Source: Azolla caroliniana
Taxonomy: Eukaryota; Plantae; Polypodiophyta
Direction: 5' to 3'
DNA length: 64,000 nt
Assembly: GCA_043228905.1 (NCBI GenBank)
Contig: JBHGNT010000009.1
Coordinates: 19,964,001 to 20,028,000 of the forward strand
The stretch's first letter is position 1. Every line of letters starts with the position of its first letter. Below are positions 12,658-60,034 of this stretch, piece after piece. The position numbers and the translations under genes are program-made. The notes below the pieces were generated by a model, which saw only the letters and a list, made by a program, of their open reading frames with translations, was not told the DNA's origin and searched no databases.

Positions 12658-13055
12658 AAAACCAGAGCTCCTAATCCTTCATCTTCTTGTTCAGAAAAAT
12701 GGATGATGATGCCCTCTGCTATCCCTGTTTGATCCAGATGAAGCCCCCATATCCTCATGGAGCTCTCCTCGTGGGTGGAAACCATACCTCCTCAAGATTT
12801 TGCACTCGCTAAGTCCTCTTCTCTCTTGTTTGATGCATATCTATACTATCTTCATCAGAGAAACAGAGCACCATTACAGAGAAGGAACAGATCTCCATCC
12901 CTGAGAAACGGAGCAACCTCAGAGAAGAAACAGGGCCAACATTTCAGAAAACAGAGGAAGAGGGTCCTTTTTTTCCCCCTTTGTTTGTGTGCGTGCCATC
13001 GATTTATACCTTCAATCTTCACAAAGAGGGCTTCTCTTTTCCACCTCTCAAGGCA

Positions 13056-20100: not shown

Positions 20101-20844
20101 CTAGAAAGTCAAAGGAGGGTACAAGTACATTAATCTTCCGAACAGTCAAAACATGTCAAGCTTACACCAGAAGAATAACAATGCTATGTCTAGATTCTAG
20201 AAGAAAGGAGGGTACAAGTACATTAATCTTCCGAACAGTCAACATGTAAAGAGGTCAGGATCTTCTAGAATCTAGACATAGCATTGTTATTCTTCTGGTG
20301 TAAGCTTGGCATGAAAATGCATACGACATCAAATGTGAAATTGATAGGGGTGACATTGTTAACTTCTAGTAATGGATGCTTTTACCCTTTCCCACTTGCG
20401 GTGAAGGATTCAGGATGAACGTGGAAAAGCCCTTCCTGACATGAAAGACAGTATGCTTGAATGAAGTTTTGCCTCGCTGTGTGATGCAATGGTGAAGAGA
20501 TTTGGAATCAAAGCACAAACACAACTAAGCAAAGTTCCTGTAGTCTGCTTTACATTTAAGTGCTAGTTATGACTCTCAAAAGCCTTGAGACATTTCAATT
20601 AGGAGTGTTTTTTTTATCTTTTAAGCTTCCTCATTCAGCTGATTACTCCCACAATGCAGAAACCAGAGAACTGGAGACTTGCCTGCCAGACTATTGTTGG
20701 GAACAAGTCGAACTCTGGCAAGGTATTATTTTCATTAGAAGTTTGTGAGTAATGAATATGCTGTCCAATTTTGATCAAATTTAGTTATGACACAATCAAT
20801 GGTTTCAGGTGGTGGTGCAAAGGTTGCCTCAAAAGAAAAAATAG
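16595..20844 (+). CDS. Plastid 2Fe-2S ferredoxin-like protein (PnsB3/NDF4 family, At4g32590-like), ~182 aa, 6 exons
   Basis: Exons 16595-16822, 19237-19341, 19441-19494, 19648-19710, 20660-20722, 20809-20844, GT-AG, all phase 0. Ser-rich transit peptide; SGEKLLRTVM, GKVMNCGGGGSCGTCIVEI, LLNERTDAE, KKKPENWRLACQTIVGNK, VVVQRLPQKKK. Confidence 0.93.
17067..17100. repeat. (TC)n microsatellite in intron 1
   Basis: Uninterrupted TC run. Confidence 0.9.
18791..18863 (-). pseudogene. Decayed tRNA-Cys(GCA) of bacterial/organellar type
   Basis: 73-nt cloverleaf GCAGATG AG GCCA AGTAGTTA AGGC A ATGGA CTGCAAA TCCAT CATAT GCAGG TTCAATC CCTAT TGTTTGC T: perfect anticodon stem, U73 discriminator, acceptor and T stems eroded by transitions. 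Confidence 0.75.
20152..20313. repeat. 53-bp inverted repeat (hairpin) in intron 4
   Basis: Arms 20152-20204 and 20261-20313, complementary except one T-G pair; 56-nt loop. Confidence 0.9.
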
Positions 20845-23578: not shown

Positions 23579-23650
23579 GGGCATTTGGTCTAGTGGCATG
23601 ATTCTTGCTTAGGGTGCAAGAGGTCCCGAGTTCAATTCTCGGAATGCCCC
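23579..23650 (+). tRNA. tRNA-Pro-AGG: tRNA-Pro(AGG), cytosolic type
   Basis: GGGCATT..CTTGC TTAGGGT GCAAG..CCGAG TTCAATT CTCGG AATGCCC C; upstream TATA-like (~23554) and CAA motifs; TTTT terminator 23654-23657. Confidence 0.95.
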
Positions 23651-27099: not shown

Positions 27100-29290
27100 T
27101 CTTACACTCAATAGCCCACATGTTTGTTCTCTATGTTTCTCATGTCATTCACGCCCCTCTATCATCTAATGGGAGGGGGAACAACCATCTCGGTACTACG
27201 TACTGTCACCGTATATCCACTCCAATTTCTACAGCCATCGGTGTAGTATACCATCGTTTTTTGAAATTCAGCCTCATTAATCCTAAAGCATCATCTGTTC
27301 CATCAATCCACTCATATTGTGCCATATTAGCTTAATATATTTTGCTGGAGGTCGTTTGTTTGCTGAAAATACCCTAGTACATCTTGTTGTGCAGATGTTC
27401 CATATGATAATGGGTGCAAGCAACATCCATAGATCTCCAATTTTCTGCTTCTGGGCATTACTTGTAGGTGCAATGTTATCAATGATCAATCGAATAGTTC
27501 CATTCTCCCCTCTGTACATTGCTTTGCATGTGCTATCAATTTCTCCACATCATCATCAAGACAGTTCCAACAAGCATGTCCCCGTTTGAGGGTAAATGAG
27601 CTAGAGGCATGGCATAGCAATCGTAATGCCCTTCTCCATACAGCCGTTGCCTCATGACATTCCCATAGACAATGGGAAATGTTTTCTAGCTGTCCACATG
27701 CACTACATCTAGGGTCTACATTGGGGCCTTTAGCCCACACCCCTACCGGCAAGCTCTATGCACAATAAGCCATAAGCACATCATTATCTTGCGGTCACCA
27801 CTGTCATGCCATATCATTTTCCAGAATTTAGCTAATCTCCTTTCATTGATGCCCTCTTGTATCCAAAATTTACGAGCTGCAATATCTTTGTGTTCTTGTT
27901 TTAGTATAATTTGCCTCCCGATTTTTGTGTTGTACCTAAAAAATTGAACCAACTTGGCACCATCCATTTGTCCTTGAGTTCTCCAGAAATACATCGCTGG
28001 ATCCCATGATAACTGATTTGAATGCCCTTCTATTGGCCAATACATTGTTGTTGGTTTGATCTCACTCGGCTTGGGGTCAACTATCATATCCTTTCCATTT
28101 TTTGCAAGCAACCTAATTAGCCTTTCAATTTGATAGGCTGGTTGCTCACATATTACCATTCTATGCTCTATTTTGTAGTAGCATGCCTCGTTAGATCCTG
28201 CTTTCATTCCCTTAAAATTCCAATTAGATAATTTTCAGCATCGATAAGCGATGTTCATTCAATTTCAGAGGGACTTATGGCTTCATCTTCCAAGGTTTGC
28301 CTGTTGCGTGCAATGACATCTATAATCCTCATTAGCACGCATTTACCCTAGTTTATCCTCCATATTCTAGCCTTTTGAGTGCCCACATCATTACACTGAA
28401 ATCTCTTCCAATCTGCCAATGTATTCCCTTGGGCATTGATTAAATTGGCCCATTTGAAGCCTGCTTTTTGTCCTATCATCGGCCCATCCACATCTCTAAT
28501 TAGTGGGTTCCAAACAATAGGCATGTACATTTGGGCATATTCGTCATTTCTCCACCTACAAACGATTCCCTTTCTTATTCCTTGCCATGGCTTCATAATT
28601 CCAACAACACATATACTTTGTGTACATCCCCGGTATTTGGATCACATTTCTGGCACAAACCCCCAAAAGGCGCTACTTGGCCAACTTCCACCTTGTCTGG
28701 GCAACCACATCTTCCCTCTGCATCGGCAAAGAATTTTCCAAGGTGCCTGAGGTGGTTGCAAGCTCTTGACCACCAATTTGCCTAACAAGGCCTTCGTTTG
28801 CACCACAGGATTTATTAGTCCCATTCCACCTTCACTTTTATCTTTTATGAGTGTGGTCCATGCAACCTTTGCACAAGCATTTTGGAAAGTTGTCAGTAGT
28901 CGAATGAAAACAGTCCTAGGGGACATAATACATACAACGCAAACTGGCTTCCTAGAAAACCGGAGCATTGTTGACAATGTGTATTCAACACAATGCGTTG
29001 TATGTATTATGTCCCCTAGGACCGTTTTCATTCGACCCTAAACCCTAAACCCTAAACCCTAGCCATGATCTTATAGGCATTAGTGAGAATCGTCAATGGT
29101 CGCCAATTATCAAGCATTGTTAGATCTTTTCCATCCTTGGGAATCAAATAAATCATTCCTCTACACATTGTTGGAGGCATTAAATCTTCTACCATAATGT
29201 ATTGCATCCCTTCCAAAATGTCATCCTTAATTAGATCCCAATATTTGATGTAAAAATATATAGGAAGTCCATCAATGCCTACGCAACTTT
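27100..29290 (-). mobile_element. L1-type LINE remnant (RT N-terminal part, post-RT region, zf-RVT), rearranged
   Basis: Fragments GIDGLP..FY..YWDLIK, IYLIPK..NWRPLTILTNAYKIMARV, KVAWTTL..EGGMGL, CSACGQLENISHCLWEC; stops and frameshifts; ends approximate. Confidence 0.85.
29036..29061. repeat. Interstitial plant telomere repeat (CCCTAAA)3+CCCTA
   Basis: ccctaaaccctaaaccctaaacccta read directly. Confidence 0.9.
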
Positions 29291-32503: not shown

Positions 32504-35500
32504 TGTTGGAGACAAGGTCGTCTATGCGGAAGATCAAGAAGCATTCGATTCTGTTCTGTACCTGCGTATGACAGTCTCTAGTTCGTTGCACAGAGAGAGA
32601 GAAAGAGAGAGAGAGGGAGAGAGAGACACAAAAGACTTTCTATTTAATAGAAACAATAATACAACACCCAACCTCACAAAAAGGTTACAAGGTCACTATA
32701 TATAGTGACCGACTTAGGGCAACTACCCTTTATGCTAATTACACAAATGGCCCAAACTTGAGCTATACAAAGGGATAGTGTGAATACGTCCATTATACAC
32801 TTGTATTCGACACTCCCCCGTAATGGGCGTATACATGGGTTATCTAAGATTACAGGTATAAACCTAGGTTCTCGGACATATCAGTTTTTGTTCGAGTCGG
32901 CAGGGTCCGAAGGCAGAAGACCGAACTGGTCGGGTCGGAAGAGTTGAAGCCGATCATTAAGGAACTGATGTCGGTTGTCGGAGACCATCCTGCGCTGTGT
33001 CCGGCTCTAACCGGACTGGTTTGTCGTTACGCCCATCTGATGCCGAAGAGACCGAAAACGGTCTGCCGAAAGACACTTGGTCATTCCATCTGCGACATTG
33101 TCAGTTGTGGATATTTTCTCTAGACCGATTTTCCCTGAAATGACGCAGTCCCGAACGAAGTGATATCGAACGTCGATATGTTTGGAGGCGTTGTGGTGAA
33201 CCGGATTTTTCGACAAGGCAACAGCACCTTGACTGTCGCTGTAGACAACTGGAGCCGAGTCATGGTCGACTTGTCGAAACGTGTGCGCCAGCCGACCGAG
33301 CCACAAAGCTTCTTTTGCTGCGTCGGACGCAGCTACATATTCTGCTTCGGTCGTTGAGGTCGCTGTGCACTCCTGAAGTTTCGACTTCCACGAGATTGCT
33401 CCATTGCCGAATTTGAAGCAGTATCCGGTTGTTGATTTCCGACTGTCTATACAGCCGGCGAAATCCGAGTCGGTGTAACCGACTACGCCTGAGGTTCGGT
33501 TCGGACCGAAAAGAATGCCGCGGTCTTTTGTGCCAGCCAGATATCTGAACACATGCTTGACTGCGTTCCAATGCGATCGGCCAGGGTTATGCATAAATCT
33601 GCTAACGACTCCTACGGCATGAGAGATATCAGGCCGTGTCGCGACCATCAGGTACATAAGGGAGCCGACTGCCGGTGCATACGGTACCGACTTCATATCT
33701 TCCCCCTCCGGACCGGATGTCGGGCAGTCTCGCTGAGAGAGCCGAAGATTCATGGGGAGCGGGGTTGAAGCAGACTTGGCTGATTGCATGTTGAAGCGTT
33801 CCAAGACACGTCCGATGTAGTCGGTCTGAGACAAAAAAAGATGTCGTTTATCGCGATGCCGACTAATCTTCATGCCAAGGATGTGTCGTGCCGGACCGAG
33901 GTCCTTCATGGCAAACTTCAACCGCAGTTGCCGAATGAGATCGGCAAGGTCGCCCGCGTGGCGTCCAGAAATTAGCATGTCGTCCACGTAGATGATGAGG
34001 AAGATGGGTGATCCATCTTGAGCTGTGTTGGTGAAGAGACAATGGTCCTCATCGCTTTTTGAGAAGCCGATCGATTGGATGAAGTCGTCGAACTTCTTGT
34101 ACCATTGTCGCGGTGCCTGTTTGAGGCCGTATAGACTCTTCCTGAGTCGGCAGACTAGATGTTCTTGGCCAGTTGCCACGAAGCCTTTTGGCTGCTCCAT
34201 ATAAATTTCCTCGTCAAGATCACCATGGAGGAAGGCTGTTTTGACATCTAGCTGAATCAGCTCCAAGTTGTCGGCTGCCACTACGCCGAGTAGGAAACGA
34301 AGGGTTGTCATTTTCACCACTGGTGAAAAAATCTCGTCGAAGTCGACGCCATATTCTTGTCGGAAGCCCTTCGCAACTAATCTGGCCTTGTACTTTGGGG
34401 TGGTCGAATCAGACGTCTCTTTTAGTCGATAAACCCACTTGCAAGGAAGAGCACGTCGGTTCCTAGGTAATTCAACCAGATCCCAAGTCTTGTTTGCTCG
34501 GATGGAGTGCATTTCCGACTCCATCGCCAGATGCCAGGTGGCTGAATCGACAGATGTCGATGCTTCTTCGTAAGACGTCGGTTCGCCGGCGTCGGTGAAG
34601 AAAATTCCAGGAGAATACCTCTCCGGAGGTTGCGACAGTCTCTCGGATCGTCGAGGTATGATTGGACTGGTCGCATCGGGTATCGAGGTCGGATGGTCCG
34701 AAAGCGAATCATTCGGCTGTGCCGAGTCGGAGCTGTCCGAGTCGGGAATGTAAGGTTCAGCTACCCGTGAAGCTGACCGTGTGTTAAGAGCGGGGCCTTC
34801 TTGAAGGGTCGGCACATCGGAAAATGTTACCCTTCGGACTTCGGTCGGTGTTTCGACTGATGGAGTCATAGCCGACTCGTTGAACACAACGTCCGAACTT
34901 CGAACGATTTGTCTGCGTTCGGGGTCCCAGAGTCGGTATCCCATTTCGCCGTCTGATCCATATCCAAGGAAAATGCATTTCCTGGACCGAGGTGCAAGTT
35001 TTCGGCGAACATCTTTCGGAATAAGGGCGTACGCCTCGCATCCGAAGATCCTCAGCTTGTCGTAATTCGGCTTACTGCCGATCCATAGTTCCTGAGGAAT
35101 TTGAAGTCCTAGAGGTCTACTTGGCGACATATTGATTATGTGTACTGCCGTGAGTAGAGCCTCTGCCCAGAAGCCATCCGACAGTCCGGAGTGTTGGAGC
35201 ATGGAAACTATCCGTTCTTGGATTGTCCGATTCATTCGTTCTGCAATCCCGTTTTGCTCCGGACTGTGTGGTGCCGTAAATTCACGTCGGATGCCGCGTT
35301 GTCGGCAGAATTTGACGAATTCTTTGGATTTGAACTCTCCCCCATTATCGGTCCGAAAGCATTTCAGTTTTCGGCCGGTTTGATTTTCTACCATAGCGAG
35401 CCAATCGGAGAAGATCGAGAAGACACGATCTTTGGTGCGAATTGGATAAGCCCACACCTTTCGAGTCGAATCGTCAATAAAACTGACGAAGTAAGAGGCA

Positions 35501-38045
35501 CCGCCAAGAGACTGATGCGGCATTGGGCCACAGACGTCCGAGTGGACTAAGTCGAGAGGTCTCGTTTCTCTTGGTGCTGATGTCGGGTGTGATGCGGCTG
35601 CTTGTTTGCCATACTGGCAATGCTCGCAGAATTGATGGTCCGAGAAGGAGAGTTTGGGGATGTACCCGGCTCTAGATAGGTGCGTGATGCCGGCCTTGCT
35701 GAGGTGTCCTAATCTTCTGTGCCATAGTGATGACACAGGAATATCCACCAAAAACAGGTTACCCTCTCTGAGCGTAACATGTAACGGATACAGTGAGTGT
35801 ATCTTGGGTCCTCTAGCAAGCAGGAGGTTCCCCTTGTGGAGTGTCCACCCTCCCGAAGAAAAACCGGCACGAATGCCGTCTTCATCTAGTTGTCCGACTG
35901 AGATCAATGGCCTTGAGAGCTCGGGTACATGTCGGACATTGTGAAGTACAAGTGTAGAGCCACCTGCAAGGTTGAGCTCTACTGTGCCGATTCCGATGAT
36001 GTCACAGTGTTGCGAGTTACCGACTCGAACTGAGTCGGAGTGACGGATCGTATATTGCCGAAATTGGGATCGATGAGGAGTCACGTGAAATGACGCGCCC
36101 GAATCTAAGAGCCATGTGCTCGATTCTTCAGTCGTGAGCAGAACTTCTGATCCGACTGGATTTTCGATTGATAGTATATTCGGGTCGTTTGGTAGCACAT
36201 CAGCTGAGAAGCTGACGTAATTGATCTCCTCATGCCGGCCACTCTTCTTGTCTGATTTCTGAGACTTGTCGTTCTTGTTCTTGAGTGCGCGGCAGTCGGC
36301 TTTGATGTGTCCGGGTTTCTTGCAGTAGTTGCAGATTCGGTTATCCCGTGACTGGCTCCGTCTTCGCTGATTGTTCGGCGGTCGTGAGGAATCTCTTCCT
36401 CGTATGTTCGATCGGTCTGTCGAACCTTGTACTACATAAGCGTCGTCTGTTGAGTCTTTGGCGAAAGACTTTCTCCGAGCTGCTTCGGTCAGGATTGCGC
36501 TCGTGACTTCGGAGTATTTAACAGCCGTGGTTGACGCGTTGCACACGGTTGTGACGAAAGTCTCCCATGATGAGGGAAGGCTGCTCATGAGTATCATGGC
36601 TCTGAGTTCATCCTCGATTGCCGTCCCCTGAGATGAGATTTGGGAGCTTATGCTTTCGTACTCATTGAGATGTGCTTGAACCGAATCGGATTCTTTCATC
36701 CGCAAGTTGTAGAGGCGCCGGATCAGAAACATCTTCGTTGCAGCGACCTTCTTTTCGTAGGTGTCCGACAGTGTTTTCCACAGTTCGAATGCTGTCGTAC
36801 ACGATTGCACCGTAAAGTATACCGATTCCGATAGGTGCATCCGAATCGTGGCACGGACGATTCTGTCCAGCTTCTGCCACTCAATTGGTTTGTATCCTTC
36901 TGGAGGTTCTTCATTTTCGATGGGATCGATTTGCCCCTTGACTATGAGATAGTCCTGCATTTGCTCCTTCCAGAAGTTGAAGTTCGATCCATCGAACTTT
37001 CGTAGACTCATTTCTGACGAGCCGGATGTTGATGCCATCAAATTTGGTTTCGGTTGGCGAAGCTCGGTTCGGAGTTGACTACGAACCTTGAAGGAGTGCA
37101 GCCGGTTGGCTCACCCGATATCGTTCAAGTCGGATTTGAACCCGAGTCGGTTCGGCTTCGGATATATGTATTTGTTGAACTTGCTCGAATTGACTCCGGT
37201 AACTTGAGGGACAGAACCGACTGGTCTTCCCGAATGTTGCCGAGTCGGAGTGAGCCCGGTTCGCTTCCGAATATATATGCCAAATACCGATTATTGAAAC
37301 CGATTATCTGGACCGATTCTGCTTCGGTTGACTGCAGCGACGAGAGAGACGGATCCAACTGATCCTCTCGAATGTCGATCAGCCGGATGAAGCACGAATT
37401 GGGGTTGTTGTCTTGAGACCGATCTGCACCGAGTGGTTACAATGAGCGGCGAGCAGCGTTTGATGACCTCTTCGGATGCCGTTTAACCGAGTGGAGCACG
37501 ATCGTGTCAATGTTGCACAAGGGGATTTCACCTCGAGTGGTTACGATCACAAGGAACGGAGTACAGCCGGCTGGCTTACTCCAGGCGAAGATGATCTAAC
37601 GCGATGAGGTGCAATCCTCGTTTTTCTTCTTCTTCTCTCTTCTTCGAATGACGCAGGAAACCGAATACTGTGCAGGCTGAGACGACGGCCGACAGCGGAT
37701 TGAAGGACCGAATACTGTGCAGGCTCTGATACCAGATGTTGGAGACAAGGTCGTCTATGCGGAAGATCAAGAAGCATTCGATTCTGTTCTGTACCTGCGT
37801 ATGACAGTCTCTAGTTCGTTGCACAGAGAGAGAGAAAGAGAGAGAGAGGGAGAGAGAGACACAAAAGACTTTCTATTTAATAGAAACAATAATACAACAC
37901 CCAACCTCACAAAAAGGTTACAAGGTCACTATATATAGTGACCGACTTAGGGCAACTACCCTTTATGCTAATTACACAAATGGCCCAAACTTGAGCTATA
38001 CAAAGGGATAGTGTGAATATGTCCATTATACACTTGTATTCGACA
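32504..38045 (-). mobile_element. Intact, very young Ty1/Copia LTR retrotransposon (Tnt1/Tork-like)
   Basis: 309-bp LTRs 32504-32812 and 37737-38045 (TG..CA) with one visible mismatch (32787 C / 38020 T); TSD AATAT; tRNA-iMet PBS TGGTATCAGAGC 37734-37723; PPT next to 32813. Confidence 0.97.
33007..37038 (-). CDS. Copia gag-pol polyprotein (gag, CCHC, PR, IN, RT, RNase H), uninterrupted
   Basis: 1343 aa from ATG 37038: CNYCKKPGHIKADC, WLLDSGAS, WHRRLGH..CEHC, HSDVCGP, RTDNGGEF, LDVKTAFLHG, YVDDML, YTDSDFAG, KHIDVRYH. Confidence 0.97.
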   Translation of the reverse strand: MASTSGSSEMSLRKFDGSNFNFWKEQMQDYLIVKGQIDPIENEEPPEGYKPIEWQKLDRIVRATIRMHLSESVYFTVQSCTTAFELWKTLSDTYEKKVAATKMFLIRRLYNLRMKESDSVQAHLNEYESISSQISSQGTAIEDELRAMILMSSLPSSWETFVTTVCNASTTAVKYSEVTSAILTEAARRKSFAKDSTDDAYVVQGSTDRSNIRGRDSSRPPNNQRRRSQSRDNRICNYCKKPGHIKADCRALKNKNDKSQKSDKKSGRHEEINYVSFSADVLPNDPNILSIENPVGSEVLLTTEESSTWLLDSGASFHVTPHRSQFRQYTIRHSDSVRVGNSQHCDIIGIGTVELNLAGGSTLVLHNVRHVPELSRPLISVGQLDEDGIRAGFSSGGWTLHKGNLLLARGPKIHSLYPLHVTLREGNLFLVDIPVSSLWHRRLGHLSKAGITHLSRAGYIPKLSFSDHQFCEHCQYGKQAAASHPTSAPRETRPLDLVHSDVCGPMPHQSLGGASYFVSFIDDSTRKVWAYPIRTKDRVFSIFSDWLAMVENQTGRKLKCFRTDNGGEFKSKEFVKFCRQRGIRREFTAPHSPEQNGIAERMNRTIQERIVSMLQHSGLSDGFWAEALLTAVHIINMSPSRPLGLQIPQELWIGSKPNYDKLRIFGCEAYALIPKDVRRKLAPRSRKCIFLGYGSDGEMGYRLWDPERRQIVRSSDVVFNESAMTPSVETPTEVRRVTFSDVPTLQEGPALNTRSASRVAEPYIPDSDSSDSAQPNDSLSDHPTSIPDATSPIIPRRSERLSQPPERYSPGIFFTDAGEPTSYEEASTSVDSATWHLAMESEMHSIRANKTWDLVELPRNRRALPCKWVYRLKETSDSTTPKYKARLVAKGFRQEYGVDFDEIFSPVVKMTTLRFLLGVVAADNLELIQLDVKTAFLHGDLDEEIYMEQPKGFVATGQEHLVCRLRKSLYGLKQAPRQWYKKFDDFIQSIGFSKSDEDHCLFTNTAQDGSPIFLIIYVDDMLISGRHAGDLADLIRQLRLKFAMKDLGPARHILGMKISRHRDKRHLFLSQTDYIGRVLERFNMQSAKSASTPLPMNLRLSQRDCPTSGPEGEDMKSVPYAPAVGSLMYLMVATRPDISHAVGVVSRFMHNPGRSHWNAVKHVFRYLAGTKDRGILFGPNRTSGVVGYTDSDFAGCIDSRKSTTGYCFKFGNGAISWKSKLQECTATSTTEAEYVAASDAAKEALWLGRLAHTFRQVDHDSAPVVYSDSQGAVALSKNPVHHNASKHIDVRYHFVRDCVISGKIGLEKISTTDNVADGMTKCLSADRFRSLRHQMGVTTNQSG

Positions 38046-40491: not shown

Positions 40492-40956
40492 TGATAGTCG
40501 GTGATATATTATATGAAGAGTAAGTACAAGAATAGCTAGGAGGCTTAAGACTAGCGTTGAACCGAATTGGTTCGAAATAATGCCTTGTGCCTCTTTTTAT
40601 AGTGTTGTCAGGAGTACTCTTGAAGTTTCTAGAATGTTCAAGAGAAATCTAGAATATACATCAATTTTCTATAGTGAAATAATAAATAAAAACAATATTT
40701 TTTGTATTACAATGTATAGCTTAATGGTAAGGCTTCAACCCACGTGACACAAGGTCATGGGCTCAAATCCTTTTAATGCCATACCATGCTATATCATGGC
40801 ACTATCCCCCCCTTTAAACAATGAGTATTACGAGTCGTCTTTGATTGAGGACCTGGTTTGTTCGGATATTGACGATGGAAGTCTTCAAGAAGAGCTCGAG
40901 CATTCGCCAAATTCGTCATTGGTTCCCAAGTACACTCGCTTGGACTATATCCAAAC

Positions 40957-44400: not shown

Positions 44401-45151
44401 AGTAGGTTCTTGGGGTTGTCGATACCTGATTTCTCTTGTTCTCCAATCTATGTCCGGATTGTGTAATTCGAACCACGATAACCCCAAAACAATGGGATGT
44501 TCTGGACTACTAATTATATTAAACGATACTACACAGGCCAAACTATCTAGGACAATACTAATTGGCTCTAACTCTTCTATGATATTTCCAAAACCAATGG
44601 GACGACCATCAATGACTACTACAGATGTTGGCTAGGGAAGTTTTCTTAGGGATATTTGATGAGCTTGCGCAAAATTCCTACCCATGAAGCAAGAATTAGC
44701 TCCGGAATCTAAGAGTGCTAAGATATGTATTGGAGGGGTACTTTTAGTACCAATTGTTACTTGAGCTAAGAACATATTGCTAACTTGCTTAGAGGGAATG
44801 GAACCACAAATGGGTTGCACAGGTCTAGGGTTGTCCAACCAAACGATTCCTATTTTGGTTGGACTTAGTCGTTTAACTCTTCTTCTAACTGACTAAGGAC
44901 ATCAAATTTGTTTGATAGACTTTGGTTATTAGTACTATTAGGACTATCAGATATTCATATTGAAATAGACTCGGGTTTAGTACAATTAGTACTAGCGACT
45001 ATTTGGTTTACCTCTCTTCTTGGCCTATGGGGACAATTCACTACAATATGCCCTGATCCACCACAATAAAGACATAGTCGATTTTCACGGCGTCGCTACT
45101 TTTCCTCTTCCGATAATGGTCCGCGATGACGTGTGGTGTCAAATTCCATCG

Positions 45152-45909
45152 TGTTGGTAGACAGGTCCCTCCGGATGGGAAGTGAGAAGACCAGTGCCGA
45201 CGAACAAACTCGGCCGAAACGGTATGAACCGGATGAGGAGTACCCGACTGCGGAGAGTCGGATGGTGTAGGCCCGGTATGAACTGGATGAGGAGTACCCT
45301 ACTGCGGAGAGTCGGATGGTGTAGGCCCGGTATGAACCGGATGAGGAGTACCCGACTGCGGAGAGTCGGATGGTGTAGGCCCGGTATGAACCGGATGAGG
45401 AGTACCCGACTGCGGAGAGCCGGATGGAGAGTACCCGACTGCGGAGAGCCGGATGGAGCCCATCGAGGCTACATTTGTAAATAGCCGAAAAGTCATATTA
45501 GTATAAATATGACTTAGGGCAAACTTTTAGTGGAAAAGTTGTTGTCGTTTTATGTTGTTATTATTCCTTCTTGTTGGTGCAAGAAGAAATTAGAGCGCGT
45601 AACTGTACAGAGAGAGAGAGAGAGAGAGACGAGGTCGCTGCCTCTGTTGTAACCGCCGCCTGTGGCGAAGATCTGTGAGCACGAGGTCGTTGCCTCAGTG
45701 ATCTCACTGTTGTATATCTCTACATAGTGACAGTTTGCAGCTTGTGGGCTGCCGTGGTTTTTCCCCTATCTTGGGGTTTTCCACGTATACCTCCTGTGTA
45801 CCATTCCTCCTCTTTTGTGTCGCGTTCCATTACCTGTTTTTTTTCTGTGTATGTAAAGAATCTCGGTTGTGGCCGAGCGTCGAACATAAGGAACGTCAAG
45901 TTCCCAACA
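45152..45909 (+). mobile_element. Solo LTR inserted in chromovirus gag
   Basis: TGTTGG..CCAACA termini; TSD CATCG; TATAAATA near 45503; splits the gag PTPM|EFD motif. Confidence 0.92.
45219..45455. repeat. 54-bp tandem repeat (~4 copies) in LTR U3
   Basis: Unit ccggtatgaaccggatgaggagtacccgactgcggagagtcggatggtgtaggc, head to tail with no spacers. Confidence 0.92.
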
Positions 45910-46824
45910 CATCGGAGTTGGAGTATTTGCTGGAGACGCATTATATGACTCCCTTGGAAAAGGTTTTCGTACAACTAAGGCGTAGGTGGGCTCTGATCTT
46001 GTCCTTGGCATCTGGAACTGACGTTCCAAACGTCGTTAAAAAAGGTGGTTATCGCATCGTACCGCGCAACTGATTTATTCTATCAATGACTTTGGCTCTT
46101 CAGGGAAAGTCAAGAGTAAATCCTTGACATCATTACGTAGGCCATAACAAAATTGCTCCATTAATGTCTAGTCATCCCAGGGAATATTAGTGGAGAGAAG
46201 ATGGAAATCTTTAACATAAGTTGAGGTTGGCCGATCATCTTGGCGAAATCTTCAGATTTTATTGATTGCCGTCCTAACACTGTCGGTATCTCCAAAACAA
46301 GCTTTAAAATCGCGAATAAACTTTTCAAAATTATTTAACAAGGGAGAGCTTTTTTCTAAAAGGGGGGCGAACCATGCCAAAGCCATGCCACTAAGTAGCG
46401 TACCTATTAGTTCCACTCATGATGCATCGGTGGGATATCGAGAAGGATGCATTTGAATCACTAAACATACCTCATTAAGAAAACCTCTAAATTGTGATCG
46501 GGTCCCATCAAATTTCATAGGAAAACTGATCTTGGGTTCTTTGTGAGTCCCTTGAGCGCTTGATCCTTGTTGTTGTAATAATACAATAGTCGCTTCAAGT
46601 TGTTGCACACGTAATGTCAGCTCCCCTTGTTGTTGTTGTTTTTCTAGAGCTATTTGTTGAAGATCCCCCAACAGACGGTGATTTTCTTGTTCTAGTGCTA
46701 CAAACTTCTCTGTTAAGCACTGGAGCTCCGAGAAAACAGATTGGTATGCTTGAGCGCTAACAATTGCCATTTACTAGGGAGGATAAGAGGATTAGTATGA
46801 AGGGAAGGAGGGATAAGAGGATGA

Positions 46825-47505
46825 CTGAATTCGGTTCAAATGTGTTTACGAACGAACATTTTGTCCATAAAACACGTAGTTGCCCTAGAATCGAGAAGTG
46901 CTAAGGACCTAATTGAAATAGACTTGAAATGGATGCTTACCGGGAAGGATAAATCTTCTATCGATGTAGCCGAACTATGGGAGCAACACAAATGTAGATT
47001 GCCCAACCACATGGCCCCTACTGTAATTGGATACCGTTAGTTTTTGGTTGTTGGGGCCGTCTAGTCGTATTGTTTGTAGATAATTGTCATTGATTATTCT
47101 TGATTGGGCAAAAACGAATTAGATGGGTGGATGCACCACAATATAAACATAGTCCGTTGGATCGGCGATACCTCCGTTCAGGCTCGGTGAGTGGCGGGAC
47201 GCGAGCTCGATCAATTTCCATCGGCACAGGGTCATCGTATGATGATGATAGAGGAGATCTCGAAGAGGGTTACCACCTTGAAGTTGCTCGTTCCTCTTGA
47301 CGAAGCTCAAACAACTGATTGTCACAACTAACTACTTGTGTGATGGTTTGCCACAATGATGTAGGCTTCGGAAAGTTGAGTAGTAAATTTTTAATCTCGC
47401 TTCGAAGGCCCCAACAAAAATGGTCGCAAAGCGGTTGGCCATCCCACTAAACATCAGGTCATGGGTTCAACCCCCTACATTCCATGTGGCATCCCATCTA
47501 TGATA
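46825..47505 (-). mobile_element. Deleted chromovirus fragment: first ~49 bp of LTR fused to gag C-terminus and start of pol
   Basis: 47505-47457 matches the start of the 54708 LTR; gag PVPMEID..CLYCGASTHLIRFC similar to 58600-59030. Confidence 0.75.
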
Positions 47506-49440
47506 GGAACCTAGAACTCAATTGGCATGACGACTTCTAAACCAAATACCAACCGAAAAGGTGTGGACTTTATACTCGTTTTAAAGGTGGTACGATATGC
47601 CCAGAGTGCACTATGCAGCTTGTCATCCCGATCAGTGCGATTTTCGTTTACGATTTTCTTTAGGATGGTCTGCAACGTCTTGGTTTTCAACTCAGTCATG
47701 CCATTTGCTTGCGGATAATACAATGTGCTTTTCTTATGGACCACCGCGTAGTGCATTGTGAGCCCCCGAATAGTTTTGTTAATGAAATGTCCCCCTTGGT
47801 TGATGACGAGCTCGATCGGGCAGCCAAAACGGCACCATAAGTATTCTTAAATAAATTTAGTTGTAGTAGCCGCTATGTTGTCTCGAAGCGCTTTTGCTTC
47901 GACCCACTCGGTACAATAATCGGTCGCAACGATAATATATTTATTGCCTGTGCGGGCTGCGATCAGCTTGAATGGGTCGACAAAATCCAAACCCCGCTTC
48001 TGGAATGGTTCAAGCAGAAGAATCAGTTGGTGGGGCATTTGTGCTTGCTCGATAGGTTGCCCCATGCGTTGGCATAGGTCACATTGACAACAGAATTCGT
48101 GACCATCCTTCTACGTAGTCGGCCACCATAAACCGCTTTGCCAAACTTTCCGAGCCGTTGCATCTCCAACATAATGTCCGCCAACTACCCCATAATGGGC
48201 CTCTTGGAAGATGGCATCTTTTTTGAACTTTCGAAAAGCTCAGCGCTAGATACCGTCCGAGCCCTTGTGGTAGAGTGTGTCGGCCAACAAGCAAAATGTT
48301 TGACTTCGGACTGCCAACCGCTTCTTTGCATCCAAGGGTAGGTGCTCGGGTGGAAGCCTAGTGCTAAGGAAATATATTATTTAGTCTATCAACTTGTCCT
48401 TGGACTCGAGATTCGATATGGCGGGGTTGATTCCGAAAATGTCAGCATCAAGGAGATCGTCATACACAGTTTCGGCTAACTCCCCCGATTCAAGTCAACT
48501 GAGATAGTTGGCTACCACGTGTTGTACCCCAGGGCGATGGTGTATGTCGAATTTGAATTCTTGCAAGAGAAACATCCATCTTGCCAATCTTCCCATTAGG
48601 GACTGCTTGGTGACCAAGTATAACAGGGCTGAGTGATCAATGTGGAACGTAAATTTTCGGCCGAGTAGATAGTGTTGAAACTTTGTTATGTTGTATATCA
48701 TTCCAAGCGCTTCGTGTTCCATGGTTGAATAATTCTTTTCGGCCTCCGAGAGACGTCAGCTCGCATAGTAAACTGGCTGGCACCAATTTGGGGGCGTCAT
48801 TTGCATTAGAGAACTCCCGATAGCCACGTCAGAGGCGTCGACGAATACGTGGAATGGTTGTGACTAATCGGGGGATTGCACAACCGGCACATGGGTCAGC
48901 ATAACCTTGAGAGCCTTGTATGCTTCATCTTCTGTTTTTGTCCATTTAAAGGGTGTTCTATGTACTGTTGCATGTAGAGTGTTGCGAACTCGGCCACTAA
49001 TGCAACGTTCAATTATGCCATTGAATCTGCCCCAAAAATCGGCTCAAGGCCTTCACGGTAGTTGGGGCTGGAGCAGGCTGGATGACATTCACTTTATTGG
49101 GGTCCATTGCGATCCCCTCTCGGCTGACGATATGTCCCAGTAGGGCACCGCTAGAGACGTTAAACGCGTATTTCGTGGGGTTAAGGTTGAGCCGAGCTTG
49201 TTAGCAACGATCTAAACAGAGCCGTAACTAGTCGAGATGCTCAACTTGCCGTCCATAAACCACAAAATCTTCAAGGAAGACTTGCATGAATGTCGGAATA
49301 TATTCGTCGAAAATTTCGGCGTTGATTTGTTGGAATGTCAACCCGAACATAATTACAACCACCACGAAAACACCCCACTCGGTTACGAAGGTCGTGTTTT
49401 CCTGGTCGTCAGGGTGCATGCGGATCTAATTGTATCTGTT
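47506..49440 (-). mobile_element. Non-chromovirus Gypsy (Athila/Tat-like) RT-RNase H-IN remnant
   Basis: [80 protein letters not shown]. Confidence 0.85.
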
Positions 49441-50465: not shown

Positions 50466-53400
50466 AAATTTCCAGTTGTCCAATTGTCCAAGCCAACCCC
50501 AGTGGAAGTTGTTGATGGATGCATGCTTTCCTCTAGAGCAGTCACCGAAGGCACTATCCCACTATCTTATAGCTCAGGAACCACCAAGAGGTCTTAACAT
50601 TTTATGTTATCACTTCACCGTGACATCCAGACATACTTGGTTTGTCCTGGCTGAAGGCACAAAATCCAATTGTCGATTGCCGCAACCACTCTATTACTTT
50701 CTTGCAAACCAGCTTGGAGGTGCCAACAGTATCTCATGTTGTAGCAGCAATATGGCACAAATCGGGTTCAGGTGCTCACCCTTCCATTAAGTCAAGAATT
50801 AGCTCCAAGGTGGATTTTCATGTCCTAGTCACAACGAGGAAAATAGTGCATAGTGCCTCTATGTTGAGTAGTCCAATGAAGACAACTATCAACTCACTAT
50901 CGTCCAAGTATGAAGACTTGGGGAACGTTGTCGTGAAGATCCATCACTACGTGCGGATCGTGAGGCGGAACCGCTGGGGTTCTGGACCGGAAGGACTCGA
51001 AGTTTGCACTAGCTTTAGCGAGAAAGGAATTAAGATAGATTGAAAGAGAGAGAGATTGAGATAAGATAGAACACTTGACTTTAGATTGAGAGAGATTAAG
51101 ATTGAACTCTTGACTTTAGATTTGAAGAACAAGATTGATACATCAATTGGATAACGAATTTCTTACTTTTAAATTCTTGATTAATACATCACTCTCGTTT
51201 TTCTTCTTCATCCACTCTTTTATAGACGCCCCCATGCATATGATGCATGTGAGGGTACAAGACATGCATACAATGCATGGAATGCATGTGATGCATGTTT
51301 GCCATTTGGCGCTCATGCATTAATGTGATGCATGATAACCATGTCACTCGATCAAGCTCTAATATGATAATTTGGTCTGTCCATTCCGAATCCGGTTCTG
51401 TTGCCGGTGTTGGTTCCGTCACCGTCCGGTGCCGGTGTCGGTTCTGGCTCCGTCGTCGTCCGATTTCGGTTCCGCCAAAACCATTACAAGTAGTTAAGCC
51501 ATAGTTCAACCCAAGAACATTTTGTGCTCCACTCATAGACAAAAAGTAATAAGTTCTAGCTCTGCTTATATATTGTGGGATCCGGATTTGTCCTATCTAT
51601 GTGGGATATCTCACAGTTTTTGTTTTTCTCTTCTTCTTCTCAAACTTCACACTCACATAACTTGACACTAAGTTGTCCATTTCACATGTAGTAAAATGGA
51701 TTCGGAAGCTCTTGAAGACATCCATCTTTTCATACCAAGATATAAAATAATATCTTCATTATTATTGTTTCATATTGTGTGTGAAGAACCACACTCGATT
51801 TTGTACATTCCATGCAATTTTCACACCGTTGCCAAAAATCTTCACGATAACGTGTTTGAGCCCAAGCATCGACCCTACGACTGTCTTATCGATTTGCAAG
51901 AAGGTGTCAATTCTACCTTCAGCCCAATTTATGGATTGTCGGAACCAGAACTCTAGGCACTCCAAACTTATCTCAATGAAAACCTTGGAAAGGTTTTTAA
52001 TCAACCCTCAAAATCACCAACAAGAGCTCCTATTTTGTTTGTGAAAAACGAAAGATGGTTCCTTACGCCTCTGCGTTGACTATCGGGGTCTAAAAAAGAT
52101 TATTGTTCACAGTAGCTACCCGTTGTGTCTCATCCTAGAATTGTTGGATCGACTCCGAACTGGGAGGATCTTCTCTAATATCGACCTACGGGGAGGAGCA
52201 TACAACCTGGTACAAATCAAACCTGGAAATGAATGGAAAACCTCCTTTAGAACGTGCTACAGTCATTTCAAGTATAAGGTAATGCCTTTCGGCCTCACTA
52301 ATGCCCCTACAATATTTTAGCATATGATGAATGACATCTTCCAAGAATATCTAGATCACTTTGTTGTGACCCATCTGGATGATATCTTGGTCTTCTCTTC
52401 GAACATCAAGGAGCATACTCAACATGTCAGGTTAGTCCTCACCAAACTTTGAGAGCATGGACTCTATGCTAAAAGTTCAAAATGTGAATTTCATCGTACT
52501 TCTATAGAGTTTCTTGGGTATGTCATCTCGACACAGGGAATCACAATGGACACACAGAAAGTCAAGACTATTCAAGAGTGATTTGTCCCAACTCGGGTAC
52601 GAGATGTGCAATCATTTCTTGGTTTTGCCAATTTTTATCATCGTTCAATCAAACGATTTTCAGTGGTTGCACAAACTCTCATTGCTCTTACCTGCAAGGA
52701 TGCTACTTTCTAATGGACAATAGCTGCACAAAAGGCGTTCGACTTGTTGAAACAAGCGTTTACTACGGCACCTGTCCTTTTACATCCTGACCCCACTAAG
52801 CCTTTCCAAGTCGAAACGGATGCTTCCGATTTCGCCATTGAGCGATCCTCTCCTAGCCAGATGAGGTCAGTGTGCTTCACCCGGTGGCTTACTACTCCCG
52901 CAAATTAATGGCCCAGAAATCAACTACCCTGTATATGACAAGGAGCTTCTCGCTATTATTGTTGCTTTCGAATAATGGAGACCCTATTTGGCCGGAGCGC
53001 AACACCGTATCCAAGTGGTTACTGATCACAAAAACCTAATATACTTTTCTACCACACAAACTTTAAATCGTAGACATGCGCGTTGGTCAACCTTCTTGGC
53101 AAACTATGATTTTGAGATAATCTTCCAACCTGGCGCTCAACACACGAAGACCGATGTCTTATCCCATCGATTTGAGTTTGAGCTCACTCCGAAGCATGAA
53201 GCCTATGTCCAGCAGTTCCAAATTTTGTTAAAGGCCTGATCAATTCTACAACTTCACGACTTGCTTGCTCCAGGATGACTCTTTGCTCAAGAAAATAGCA
53301 AAAGTCACTACGAATAACAAGTTCACCACAGAGATCAAGGCACGTATCACAAACCCCTCCCATGAACCCAAAAGGCCCAATTTAGTTCGTTTTACAATTC

Positions 53401-55116
53401 AAGGTAATCTTTTGTATGTCCCAGAAGGTCCGTGTTGGACTACAGTGCTCCAAGAGTGTCATGATGATCCACTTGTTGGTCATTTTGGCATTGCGAAAAC
53501 CTTGGAGTTGATATCTCGAGGGTATTGGTGGTCGCAACCATGGAAATTGGTCAAAGAGTTTGTTAAGTCATGCGACACTTGTGCTCACTCTAAAGCATCT
53601 CATTATCGATCATATGGTCTCCTTCAACCTCTCCCAATCCCCAAACGGCCTTGGGTCTCTCTTTCCATGGATTTCATCACTTACCTTCCCTTTGTTGTTG
53701 TCTATGACTCAGTGTTTGTCGTGGTTGATCGCTTCACCACGATGGCCTATTTAGCTCCATGTGCCAAAACCATTATCGGAGAGGAGATAGCCAATTTGTT
53801 TTTCAAAAATGTTGTATGGACTCCTGGATGATATTACTTCTAATCAAGGACCACAATTTGTTTCCAATTTCTGGTGGTGCCTTCTGCAAACCTTTGGCTA
53901 TACTATGAATCTATCTTTAGTCTATCATCTGCAAGCCGATGGACAAACAGAGCGGGTTAACCAAATCCTCGAACAATACTTGCGGTTCTCTCTGAGTTAC
54001 CAACAAGATGACCGGGTTGACCTTCTCCCACTTGCTGCGTTCGCCTACAACAACTCTCCGCATGCATCTAAGGGAGTTACTCCATTTTTTGCAAACTACG
54101 GTCTTCACCCTCGCTTCAACATTTCTCTTCCCTCTGACTCTGGAAATCTTCTACGGAGGACCATGCACATCTCTTGGAGGATTTACATCGCAACCTTTCC
54201 TTGGAGCTCACCTTCATTGGAGAATGCTACAAGGAGCAAGCTGATTGTCTTTGCTCAGATGCCCCTTGGTTCAAGGTAGGTGACTTTTTTTGGCTTCTCC
54301 GTCGCAATATTGCCACCAGTCGTCCTTGTCCAAAGCTCAATTACAAGAAGTTAGGCCCTTTCCCAATCATCGAGAAAATTGGTTCCATGGTTGTCCGCTT
54401 AGAGCTACCATTTCACTTCCTTATTCATAATATATTCCATGTCTCCCTTCTTGAACCTTACCATATATCTGAAATCCCAGTCGACACCCTTCTCCTCCAC
54501 CACCAATACAGCTCTCGACCGGAGAAAAATATAAGGTGGTTGGCGACTTCAATAGCTTGTCCTCTGGAAAGGGTATCCGCTCTCCAAAGCAACATGGGAG
54601 CCGGCACACCATCTCAAGCATGCCCCGGACGTAGTTCGAGCATTTCATGAACGGTATCCACAGAAACCGGCCGTGGGTCTTGGGAAGCGGCCTTAGAGGG
54701 AGGATAATGTCATAAACAGGATGCCACATGGAATGTAGAGGGTTGAACCCATGACCTTCTGGTCTTATTGAGCAACCTTACCAATTAAGATACATCCATT
54801 TATATAAAATTCAACTTATTATATTGTAGATTAATCACTAGAACTTTCAAGAAACTTCTAGAGAATGCATCTTCATGCACTCTCTAGAAGTTTCCTAACT
54901 TACAATCAAGGTGAACAACACCAGTTACGGAAACATAATTCAATTATTGTTCTCTTTTCTATTTTCTCTCTCTCGTTCTTGTTCTCTTGTCTATGCTCTC
55001 TCTCTCTCTCTCGTAGTACCGAGCCTCATCTACTCGTCCATAACAGTCTCTATCCCTTCTCTTGCTTATTTTCTCTTTCTCTTTTAGTATTTAGCCTCGT
55101 CTACTCGTCCATGACA
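50466..55116 (+). mobile_element. Ty3/Gypsy chromovirus pol and 3' LTR (54708-55116), decayed
   Basis: [57 protein letters not shown], chromodomain WKGYPLSKATWEP; PPT AGAGGGAGGATAA; LTR TGTCAT..ATGACA with duplicated U5 end (55045/55116). Confidence 0.92.
50929..51849 (-). mobile_element. 921-bp LTR-like insertion with 12-bp terminal inverted repeat and 4-bp TSD
   Basis: TGTCGTGAAGAT..ATCTTCACGATA; flanks ACGT/ACGT; interrupts host pol KYEDLGNV|FE; CTATAAAAG on - strand near 51220. Confidence 0.75.
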
Positions 55117-57175: not shown

Positions 57176-57385
57176 CACAGGGAAAGGTGGGGATTGAACC
57201 CAAGACCTCATGGTTTCTACTAGGCAACCCTACCAATTGAGCTACATATGTAGCCTTATACCAACCTCCTATAGTGAATATTGGAAGTTCCTAGCTTACA
57301 TGCATCCTCACTTCTAGCTTGCACACATTCTCATGCATTCTCTATTGCATGCATCCTCATGCATACTCTATTTCGAGTTGGCTTA

Positions 57386-57821
57386 TGTTAGATCTTATGT
57401 CTAATGTAAGCATATATGAAATAAGAAAGGAGAGAGAGAAAGAAGGGTGTCGATCCACCCGACCACCCCCGAGCGAAGGGATCGAGACGGACTCGAGCCT
57501 CGATCGGCATCCCATACCACCATCGTGGCGTCGAGTCATACCTGGTGTTGGCACGCTCACTACAAGAGTTGACCCACCACAAGAACAGAGCCTCTACGTA
57601 GTCAAGAGATGATGAAATGAGGGTAGCTAGGCGTCATATTTATAGCGAGACCAAAGGCCCCAGGCAAGTTCACACTTGGCCTAATGGGTTGTCTCAATCC
57701 CGAGGATTTAAAGTAATCCTCCCCTTCTTTACACTCTTGTTTAACCCTCACACTTATCCACGTGTATAGAATACTATGGTAAATTCTCACCACGGGATAT
57801 TATATGGTCATGCCCGTAACA
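57386..57821. mobile_element. Solo LTR nested in the chromovirus 5' LTR
   Basis: TGTTA..TAACA termini; TSD GCTTA/GTTTA; absent from the partner LTR, which reads ggcttacatagccc near 59871. Confidence 0.85.
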
Positions 57822-59030
57822 GTTTACATAGCCCTACCTTCTTGTATAAATACTCAGGTGCACCTTGATTCTAATCAAGGTGAACAACACCAGTTACGGA
57901 TTCTATAAGTTGAGTTCTTGTTCTTTTCCTCTCTCTTGTTTTCTAGTCTTGTCTTCTCTCCACTCTATTATACTTGTCCTTGACAGTTTGTTCACCTTCC
58001 CCTCTTCTTGCTACCATGTCCGGCTCCATCGACAACCTAAACCAAGTCATGGCAGCCTTGCAACAACTTCAGGTAGAGAATAAAATCCTTCGGAAGTCAT
58101 TACGAGAGTTGCAATCTGGCACTTCAAGAAATCCACCACCTGCTAAGTCACAACCACTGTCGGCACTTAGCCCAACCACGTCCTCTTCCCATCCATATGT
58201 CAACGAACCAACCATCAGCCTACCAGACAAATTCAACGGCACGAGGGCGTATCTTCGTGGCTTCATCAACCAAATTCAGCTTATCATCCGGTTACAGCCC
58301 CAACGGTATGCTAATGACTTTTCTCTGGTTGGGCTTGTCGGCATGCTTCTCTCCGGGCCGGCATAAGTGTTCTTTGTACCCTTGATCGAGATCTCATCCC
58401 CTCTCTTAGAAAACTTCACCGCTTTCATTGAGGAGCTTGAAGCAACATTTGGCGAGACAGACCGCAACGAATGTCACTCACAAAGCTTTATTCTTTCCAA
58501 CAAGGCTCACATCCACCCTCAGTCTACGCCTCAGAGTTTCGTCAGATTGCCTGCAATGTCAGTTGGGATGACCAAGCCCTATGCAACCATTTCCGTCACA
58601 ATCTCTAAAACTATGTCAAGACTCTTCTCTTAAACTTCTCGAAGCCCACATCATTGTCTCAAGTAATCTCCCAAGCTGTCCAGTGTGACAACCGTCTCTT
58701 CAAACTTCGTCAAGAATAACGGGGGTCTCAGGCTTCTTCCCGAAACGCATCAATCACCAGGCCCTACTTGTCTCCCATGCCAACCTTACCAGCACCTAGT
58801 GATACCCATACCACAACGGAGGTCGATTTCCATACCCCGATGGAGATCTACCACGTTCGGTTCCAACCACTAACTGAAGCACAACACCAACATCACCTGG
58901 ACAATGGACTCTGTCTCTATTGTGGCAACCCCGGCCATGCCATCCGCCACTGCCCGGTGCGGGGCTCGTGGCACCAATTCCATCGTGCTCATCTTGCGGA
59001 GGCTACTCGACAACAAGAAAACGACCAAGT

Positions 59031-59635
59031 TGCCGAGAACTACACGTCCCCTATGCGCAACGCTCGGCCACAACCGAGCTTAGAATCATACACAAAAAAA
59101 CAGGAATGAATGCACGACACAGTGAAGAGAAGAGTACACAAGATGTTTACATGGAAAACCCAAACTAGGGAAAAAACCACGGCAGCCCACAGGCTGCAAA
59201 CTATCACTATGTTACAGTGTACAACAGTAAAGCACCGAGGCAACAACCTCGAGCTTTCTATCTTCACCATAGGCGGCAGTTACAACAGAGGCAACGACCT
59301 CTTCCTCTCTCTGTACACACTTACGCGCTCTAATCTCTTGTGCCAACAAGAATGACAACAACACTCTACTTCACAATAAGTTTGCCCTAAGTCATATTTA
59401 TACTAATATGACTTTTTGGCTATTTACAAATATAGTCTCGATGGACTCTCAGAAACATATTTACAAATATGTCTCTTCATCCGGTGAGCACTCCTCACCG
59501 GGTCTGCACCATCCGGCTCTTCGTAGTCGGGGCTCTCCGAAGCCAGGTACTCCTCATCCGGTTTCGGCCTCGGCCGAGTTTGCTCATCAGCACTGTTCTT
59601 CTCCCTTCCCATCCGGAGGGACCTGTCTCCCAACA
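59031..59635 (-). mobile_element. Solo LTR of the 45152 family inserted at the end of gag
   Basis: Reverse-complement similarity to 45152-45909; TSD CAAGT (59026-59030, 59636-59640). Confidence 0.9.
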
Positions 59636-60034
59636 CAAGTTTGGTTGTAGTAGGAGCCATGTCGTTGGACGTTGAACCCAAGACCTCATGGTCTCTATTG
59701 GGCAACCCTACCAATTGAGCTACATATGCATCCTTGTACCAAATCCAACTTCATGTAGTGTAGGTTGAACATTGGAAGTTCCTAGCTTGCATGCATCCTC
59801 ATTTCTAGCTTGCACACATTCTCATGCATTCTTTATTGCATGCATCCTCATGCATACTCTATTCCTAGCTGGCTTACATAGCCCTACCTTCTTGTATAAA
59901 TACTCAGGTGCACCTTGATTCTAATCAAGGTGAACAACACCGGTTACGGATTTTATAAGTTGAGTTCTTGTTCTTTTCCTCTCTCTTGTTTTCTAGTCTT
60001 GTCTTTGCTCTACTCTATTATACTTGTCCGTGAC

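Follow-up and report, generated by a model that had tools for sequence, protein, structure and literature searches.

It is known that non-coding TRIMs, for example Helenus, Ajax and Cassandra, carry promoter boxes in the sense orientation (PMC10886601). The closest published case to the sequence considered here is Helenus (TRIMp3; Kojima 2024, PMC10886601), a group of TRIMs with tRNA-like LTRs: there, as here, the tRNA-derived sequence is kept at boxes A and B without a working tRNA, and one Helenus family likewise comes from a non-seed plant, Selaginella. However, Helenus elements are non-coding TRIMs of 311-1263 bp, whereas the carriers of our module encode a gag of ~350-380 aa and a pol of ~1200 aa. 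Moreover, in Helenus-1_SMo the tRNA part is in sense and the PBS starts with TGG, while here it is antisense, lies ahead of a separate TATA promoter, and the elements are self-priming. A sense Pol III promoter able to make the genomic RNA, as in Helenus, is absent here: 38 of the 40 matches within LTRs are antisense, and the sense TATA box and R lie inward. Cassandra also has Pol III promoter elements in a plant LTR, but these are 5S-derived, in sense, and make the RNA of the element itself, which is non-autonomous (PMC10886601). Many Repbase LTRs hold tRNA-like sequence, and as the analysis in that study was confined to TRIMs below 1000 bp, undescribed autonomous cases may exist in Repbase (PMC10886601). 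In the literature that we searched (most subscription journals and the Repbase reports lay outside it) we found no report that autonomous plant chromoviruses, Tcn1 or others, have antisense tRNA boxes in their LTRs.

The coding part of the elements is to be compared with Tcn1 chromoviruses (Novikova 2010, PMC2864245; Neumann 2019, PMC6317226), with which they share gag followed by PR-RT-RH-INT-chromodomain, an aromatic cage, self-priming, a length of ~5-5.5 kb and a non-seed plant as a host. Judging by the range of Tcn1, this host is likely a moss. The accessible parts of these two papers make no mention of a tRNA-like or Pol III element, and no motif was seen by eye in Selaginella SM-Tcn1 (PMC2864245) or in the first 400 nt of the Physcomitrium RLG1 assembly (PMC7466625). 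In SM-Tcn1, again by eye, the bases following the 5' LTR are complementary to a stretch of the LTR, which looks like self-priming, although the authors detected no PBS (PMC2864245).

The window (the whole 64-kb stretch of DNA that was analysed) contains a broken Tcn1-like chromovirus with an LTR (TG...CA) at 54708..55116 on the plus strand. This is the 3' LTR, because the region upstream of it (53232..54693, plus strand) holds this element's broken frames for integrase, SH3 and chromodomain; a polypurine tract (54695..54707, plus strand) ends directly before the LTR, and the same tract precedes the LTR in relatives. The earlier note had pointed to an A box, a D-arm, an AGGTC loop and a B box, antisense to the element and close to the LTR start, and this sequence is indeed present as described, at 54719-54797 on the minus strand within the LTR. 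In the tRNA register it makes a decayed unit of positions 1-72 (54729..54799, minus strand), delimited by the register pairing, by ARAGORN at a relaxed threshold of 80, which marks the same span, and by the alignment of an intact relative, L013. Its B box (G53-C61; 54740..54748, minus strand) is a perfect match to GWTCRANNC, the AGGT block at 54754..54757 (minus strand) corresponds to the tRNA variable-loop positions 44-47, and the A-box remnant at 54781..54792 (minus strand) is two letters off the family majority, its sense strand reading CCAAT. The distance from T8 to G53 is 44 nt, matching the spacing in tRNA genes. Further inward lie an array of nGAAn/nTTCn units in the inner U3 (54841..54858, plus strand), which we take to be heat-shock-element-like, and the self-primer core at the start of R (54908..54919, plus strand), complementary to the PBS; the TATA region has been deleted in this copy.

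The antisense tRNA-like module at the outer U3 edge of self-priming Tcn1-like chromoviruses is real, and the copy in the LTR at 54708 has decayed. Four DNA runs, coded as four organisms, differ from it at 54787 and 54790 in 94-99% of their contig depth, and these majority letters restore the consensus A box. As ~500-1100 contigs per run map onto the stretch, the family is abundant; the summed contig depth is not equivalent to the copy number and was not used as such. One further run (X21), guessed to be RNA, yielded three contigs of less than 90% likeness and with no strand, and was counted neither for nor against expression.

The pattern combining the variable loop and the B box has exactly five matches in the 64 kb, all antisense to Tcn1-type LTRs or LTR fragments. 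Hence, the common orientation claimed for five places in the window holds in all five cases, but the places are not all independent, as only the module at 40717 belongs to an independent LTR type. This module (40717..40769, plus strand) has a perfect A box and a B box with one mismatch and lies in a 3' LTR starting at 40801 on the minus strand; the integrase of this element groups with that of L078, outside the main clade. The module at 47457 belongs to a fragment of the 54708 LTR type fused to gag (47456..47512, plus strand) and retains just two parts, the B box and AGGT; the candidate A box at 47405-47425 was rejected, being gag coding sequence. The modules at 57191 and 59671 come from the two LTRs of one deleted element, of the same LTR type as at 54708. 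In the 5' LTR, which has lost its outer end and terminates at 57985, the module (57191..57244, minus strand) has a consensus A box and is followed by a sense TATA box (57845..57852, plus strand) and, directly after the LTR, by a self-priming PBS (57986..57998, plus strand) complementary to 57877-57888. In the 3' LTR, whose outer end is also lost and which ends near 60034, the module occupies 59669..59722 (minus strand).

An inverted repeat surrounds the start site in both these LTRs (57857-57888 and 59907-59938) and in the LTRs of L003, L007, L008, L019 and L020. One arm is an additional copy of the PBS core placed between TATA and R; in L007/L008 and L019/L020 the two arms have changed in step. 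At the 3' end of the RNA the repeat would fold into a U3-R hairpin, which may bear on self-priming. Solo LTRs with 5-bp target duplications reside inside Tcn1-like elements at ~45148-45912, 59031-59635 and 57388-57825, and two solo LTRs of one family lie near the gag end in two different elements. The idea that the module serves as a landing pad found no support in this small sample, where the only insertion in a window LTR (~57388-57825) is ~144 nt inward of the A box and the breaks in L009 and L018 are unlike element ends.

Relatives were collected by alignment with the integrase-chromodomain protein, blind to the motif. A relative was encoded in 387 stretches, of which the best 80 were kept, giving 79 loci, to which L080 was added (L001-L080 denote the relative loci fetched by integrase). 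They fall into two sets, one of 36 loci that resemble the window element closely, with up to 98% identity, and one from a second host group with different LTRs; the LTR start could be placed in 70 loci. The genome contigs searched gave no match, and neither did the viral contigs searched with the window protein or the DNA pattern, while the search of the latter with the alignment retrieved one distant element, L080.

Many contigs of the close set have open gag and pol of the above lengths, with PR, RT, RH, INT and chromodomain; because the coverage suggests collapsed copies, these frames describe families rather than single loci. The order of gag and PR-RT-RH-INT with a C-terminal chromodomain was established by Pfam on seven frames from six relatives, and broken remains of it are seen in the window. 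Residues at the positions that we take to form the aromatic cage (Y/F, W, Y) were found by eye in 12/12 printed chromodomain tails. Among named, single-copy-like homologues, those from fungi and vertebrates are the closer ones (52-62%) and those from seed plants the more distant (40-43%), the SM-Tcn1 proteins look very alike as judged by eye only, and we filed the elements as Tcn1-like, the tree containing no reference Tcn1. In the relatives the PBS can pair with the start of R, and in L008 and in L019/L020 changes on one side are matched on the other. The elements are self-priming and have no tRNA PBS; self-priming has been reported for 83% of Tcn1. The motif is present in both LTRs of L003, L006, L009, L012 and L015. 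The sense TATA box and the start of R are situated inward of the module, 218-284 nt from the B box in undeleted copies; since these autonomous elements are equipped with a sense TATA promoter of their own and an inward R start, the module cannot make the genomic RNA. The nGAAn/nTTCn arrays of the inner U3 occur in 5/12 LTR types (L001, L002, L005, L008 and the window type), and these families are possibly heat-inducible.

In 235 kb comprising the close-set loci and the window, the LTR-derived motif has 43 matches: 38 antisense in LTRs or their fragments, two in sense at an LTR start, and three outside LTRs, namely a tRNA-Pro gene and two lone motifs. The fixed place and the antisense orientation proposed in the earlier note are hence borne out (38/40), and there was no sign of a free SINE in these 235 kb, which are mostly element DNA. 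In 379 kb of the other set the same motif has nine matches, none of them at an LTR start, and even a looser core is absent from all 38 second-set loci (approximately two LTR types) and also from L079 and L080. In the close set, the module has been lost or damaged in L018, L019/L020, L022 and L025/L026, and the L025/L026 type, with no module, has an open pol frame. Since the second host group, SM-Tcn1 and RLG1 do without it, Tcn1 elements do not need the module. In the integrase tree, the module is found on two deep branches (the main clade, and L078 with the element at 40801), while the second-set clade lacks it, the tree leaving the order of these branches open. One U3 type sits on two integrase clades (L001/L004/L029 vs. 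L012/L013/L016/L044), which points to exchange of U3, or of LTRs, between families; conversely, sister integrases (L001 and L002) are accompanied by different U3 types.

To compare the boxes with their surroundings, U3 sequences were grouped by identity, tree and eye into 12 types, each represented by one sequence, the grouping threshold being a choice, and 2000 dinucleotide shuffles served as the null; being related and swapping LTRs, the types do not constitute 12 independent trials. In the first 140 nt the identity between types is 0.46-0.71 vs. 0.52 in shuffles. Perfect GWTCRANNC on the minus strand within LTR nt 1-100 is present in 7/12 types (shuffle mean 0.2, maximum 3), and is found in none of the types on the plus strand (0/12) or at nt 101-200 (0/12), nor in the LTRs of the other set (0/7). 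With at most one mismatch it is present in 12/12 types (null mean 3.5, maximum 9), although the match in L026, at nt 96, looks like chance. AGGT stands 8-10 nt before the B-box anchor in 8/12 types (null 0.22, maximum 3), YGG is found at the A-box distance in 6/12 (null 1.55; 0.3% of shuffles reach 6), and the A-box mismatches sum to 15, compared to the null mean of 27.9 and minimum of 18; these three tests are independent of the anchor letters. The A box is perfect in 2/12 types.

In the nine types left after setting aside L019, L022 and L026, 35 of the 36 AGGT letters are kept, while the spacer columns average ~4/9. The C needed by TFIIIC (C56) is kept in all nine anchored types, as CpG in seven of them, whereas CpG in U3 beyond nt 100 is at 0.23 of the expected. 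Vice versa, the letters vary at the positions left free by the consensus (49, 50, 59, 60 and the inner A box), also within one family, and among the differences listed (40 of 54) none of the common run-contig variants falls in the B box, AGGT or the A box. Thus, the boxes are more conserved than the neighbouring U3, which itself is near the shuffle level of identity, and from these patterns the module looks selected.

A check with tRNA-gene and covariance models gave no call of the module in the window, either by ARAGORN or by Rfam. The intact relative L013 aligns with the whole Rfam tRNA model (positions 1-71) at 19.4 bits (cut-off 29; E 0.067), and a second LTR type yielded no tRNA match with Rfam. 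The origin from tRNA suggested in the earlier note is supported. The parent tRNA was not named, as the isotypes given by relaxed ARAGORN change and it also marks a locus without the module. The GGATG/CATCC closing stem proposed earlier is out of the tRNA register and confined to one subfamily, and was rejected as the acceptor stem. The stem in register is ATGGATG/CATTCCA, with 5/7 pairs in the window copy, 7/7 in L016 and 5/7 in L008; Watson-Crick pairs are few in the other types. The anticodon arm, the cloverleaf and the terminator are not kept across types, in agreement with the earlier remark that this arm is not conserved, and the module has neither the cloverleaf with an anticodon arm nor the above-cut-off ARAGORN or Rfam score of a functional tRNA gene. 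No fold is shared by the LTR types, the cloverleaf is never the best one, and a conserved RNA structure was rejected (z-scores from -5.4 to +1.1, with folds differing between types). A T4 terminator lies inside the LTR in 2/9 types, and, counted from the B box, the first T4 follows after 1 to 294 nt or is absent within the stretch examined. The distance from the B box to the LTR edge varies from 6 to 62 nt, and hence the tRNA 3' arm is dispensable. Given the coding capacity of the carriers, LTRs with boxes of the tRNA type are not confined to non-coding TRIMs, and in annotation such LTRs can pass for tRNA pseudogenes.

At the LTR starts of L005, L007 and L078, and in L009-L011 and L015, short duplications of the LTR terminus push the module inward, and in the L010 type the B box is in the loop of a perfect 8-bp hairpin starting at the first base of the LTR. 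The only tRNA found in the window by ARAGORN is the tRNA-Pro gene at 23579-23650 (plus strand), with an upstream CAA and a T4 terminator; its upstream region is repeated, without the tRNA, at 24385-24540. A second tRNA-like gene, at 18791-18863 (minus strand), scores 48.9 bits with Rfam and was missed by ARAGORN.

There are several possible variants of what the module does. We give an even chance to the following one: the module would be kept as a binding site of host TFIIIC acting on DNA, a barrier or roadblock between the flanking chromatin and the sense Pol II promoter. Between the two options raised in the earlier note, an outward Pol III promoter or an insulator, we lean to the DNA-level site, because the terminator is not kept (2/9 types) and there is no shared fold. 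The module most likely works like the ETC sites and tDNA barriers of yeast: these too are TFIIIC sites in which the B box leads, and they can serve as barriers, insulators or roadblocks towards Pol II units; TFIIIC sites without Pol III are described in yeast as well (PMC4228148). The kept letters fit the TFIIIC consensus GWTCRANNC, including the invariant C (PMC4228148), perfectly in 7/12 types. On the other hand, ETC sites are host loci of yeast demonstrated by ChIP and mutation (PMC4228148), whereas ours are putative sites, mobile and in a plant.

In this variant, a tRNA gene or a SINE head would have been captured in one host lineage and would then have spread between co-resident families by U3 exchange. 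Selection would act on the element, since the 5' LTR of every new copy would bear the site at its outer end; binding would be led by the B box, with Pol III output weak or nil in most types, and the promoter would be protected in the silent regions thought to be targeted by chromodomain integrases. The motive for a barrier comes from this chromodomain targeting of silent chromatin, suggested for RLG1. Several observations speak against TFIIIC. Five of the 12 types have no perfect B box, and L025/L026 have no module; AGGT, although no part of the cited B-box consensus, is no less well kept than the B-box core; the pattern of C56 kept and G57 changed to A fits G-U pairing equally well; and the A-box remnant overlaps a sense CCAAT in 6/12 types.

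The retention of AGGT is explained more directly if the module has its role in the genomic RNA, where the sense strand would pair with the T arm, variable loop and D arm of a packaged host tRNA and aid packaging, dimer formation or strand transfer, similarly to the half of the primer site in the U3 of Ty3. We consider this unlikely, even though pairing would account both for AGGT (35/36 letters in nine types) and for positions 51-52, which are always purines, and although the gag has a Cys/His motif, presumably a nucleocapsid knuckle. In Ty3, U3 is complementary to the TpsiC and D arms of the primer tRNA near the RNA 3' end, i.e. at the same place, in the same polarity and with the same arms (PMC5371799). 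But Ty3 uses that tRNA as its primer and matches one tRNA (PMC5371799), whereas our elements are self-priming, so that no tRNA primer bridges their ends, and the consensus-free positions vary: within one family, subfamilies have different letters at positions 48-50, at 59-60 and in the inner A box, and the four A-box letters at which L030 departs all still fit the A-box consensus. If such pairing nevertheless took place, a self-priming element would use a host tRNA for a non-priming purpose.

The module could also act through an RNA of its own, as an outward-facing Pol III promoter that is active: antisense transcription starting in the 3' LTR would enter the PPT and the integrase end and damp the element, and from the 5' LTR it would enter the flank. 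Both boxes stand at tRNA spacing in most types, and the two types with perfect A boxes are consistent with such activity. Foamy viruses, which likewise are autonomous retroelements with A and B boxes in U3, do transcribe these units as miRNA cassettes, but their products are defined hairpin RNAs with terminators (PMC7104284), while no defined small RNA can be predicted from our module. The lack of a kept terminator and of a shared structure argues against any defined product, and makes this variant rather improbable. Besides, tRNA genes have CAA just upstream, as seen in the tRNA-Pro gene of the window, and by eye this is found in only 1/9 types.

Another variant is that the tRNA sequence is kept for sense Pol II factors, as a CCAAT box in the D arm and an unknown site in the T arm, with no role of TFIIIC. 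Every CCAAT in the U3 of the 12 types (six types) is on or beside the A-box remnant, and the inner U3 has other Pol II features, namely the heat-shock-element-like arrays (5/12) and the TATA box. However, L030, L043, L003/L017 and the copy at 40717 keep the A box without CCAAT, and the best-kept block is a motif of 18 nt, loop plus B box, which is matched by the tRNA-Pro gene of the window as well and for which we know of no plant Pol II factor; we thus regard this variant as quite improbable.

Finally, we hold it very improbable that the module is a neutral leftover, either from an old insertion or from tRNA captured afresh again and again during reverse transcription, conserved only by ancestry or recency: the types do share ancestry, several have lost or damaged the module (L018, L019/L020, L022, L025/L026), a plus-strand template switch onto a tRNA would presumably leave an antisense tRNA just after the PPT, and the register acceptor pairs of L016 and L008 differ on both sides, as separate captures could explain, but neutrality does not agree with AGGT kept at 35/36 against ~4/9 in the spacer or with the CpG surviving in the box of a CpG-poor U3, and fresh captures should retain anticodon arms and folds, both of which are gone.

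To return to the TFIIIC site at the DNA level: most of what is known of TFIIIC barriers comes from yeast and animals, and in the accessible text of the literature covered we found no description of their activity in plants. Such a site bears on how chromoviruses stay active while inserting into silent chromatin, and the B box at a fixed place, the families with and without the module, and the single base C56 make both questions testable in a plant. A wider proposal is tentative, and we find it possible but doubtful: a captured tRNA gene would have become a portable TFIIIC insulator at the outer edge of every new copy, traded between families by U3 exchange, keeping the elements active in silent chromatin and scattering TFIIIC sites by the thousand through the host genome.

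Other features of the window include a host gene at 12834-14744, whose best named match is from a fern (49% over 24%), a young Copia element at 32504-38045, with LTRs 99.7% alike and one open frame of 1367 aa, and long inverted repeats, MITE-like or hairpin-like, at 17203-17282, 20152-20313 and 28899-29036.
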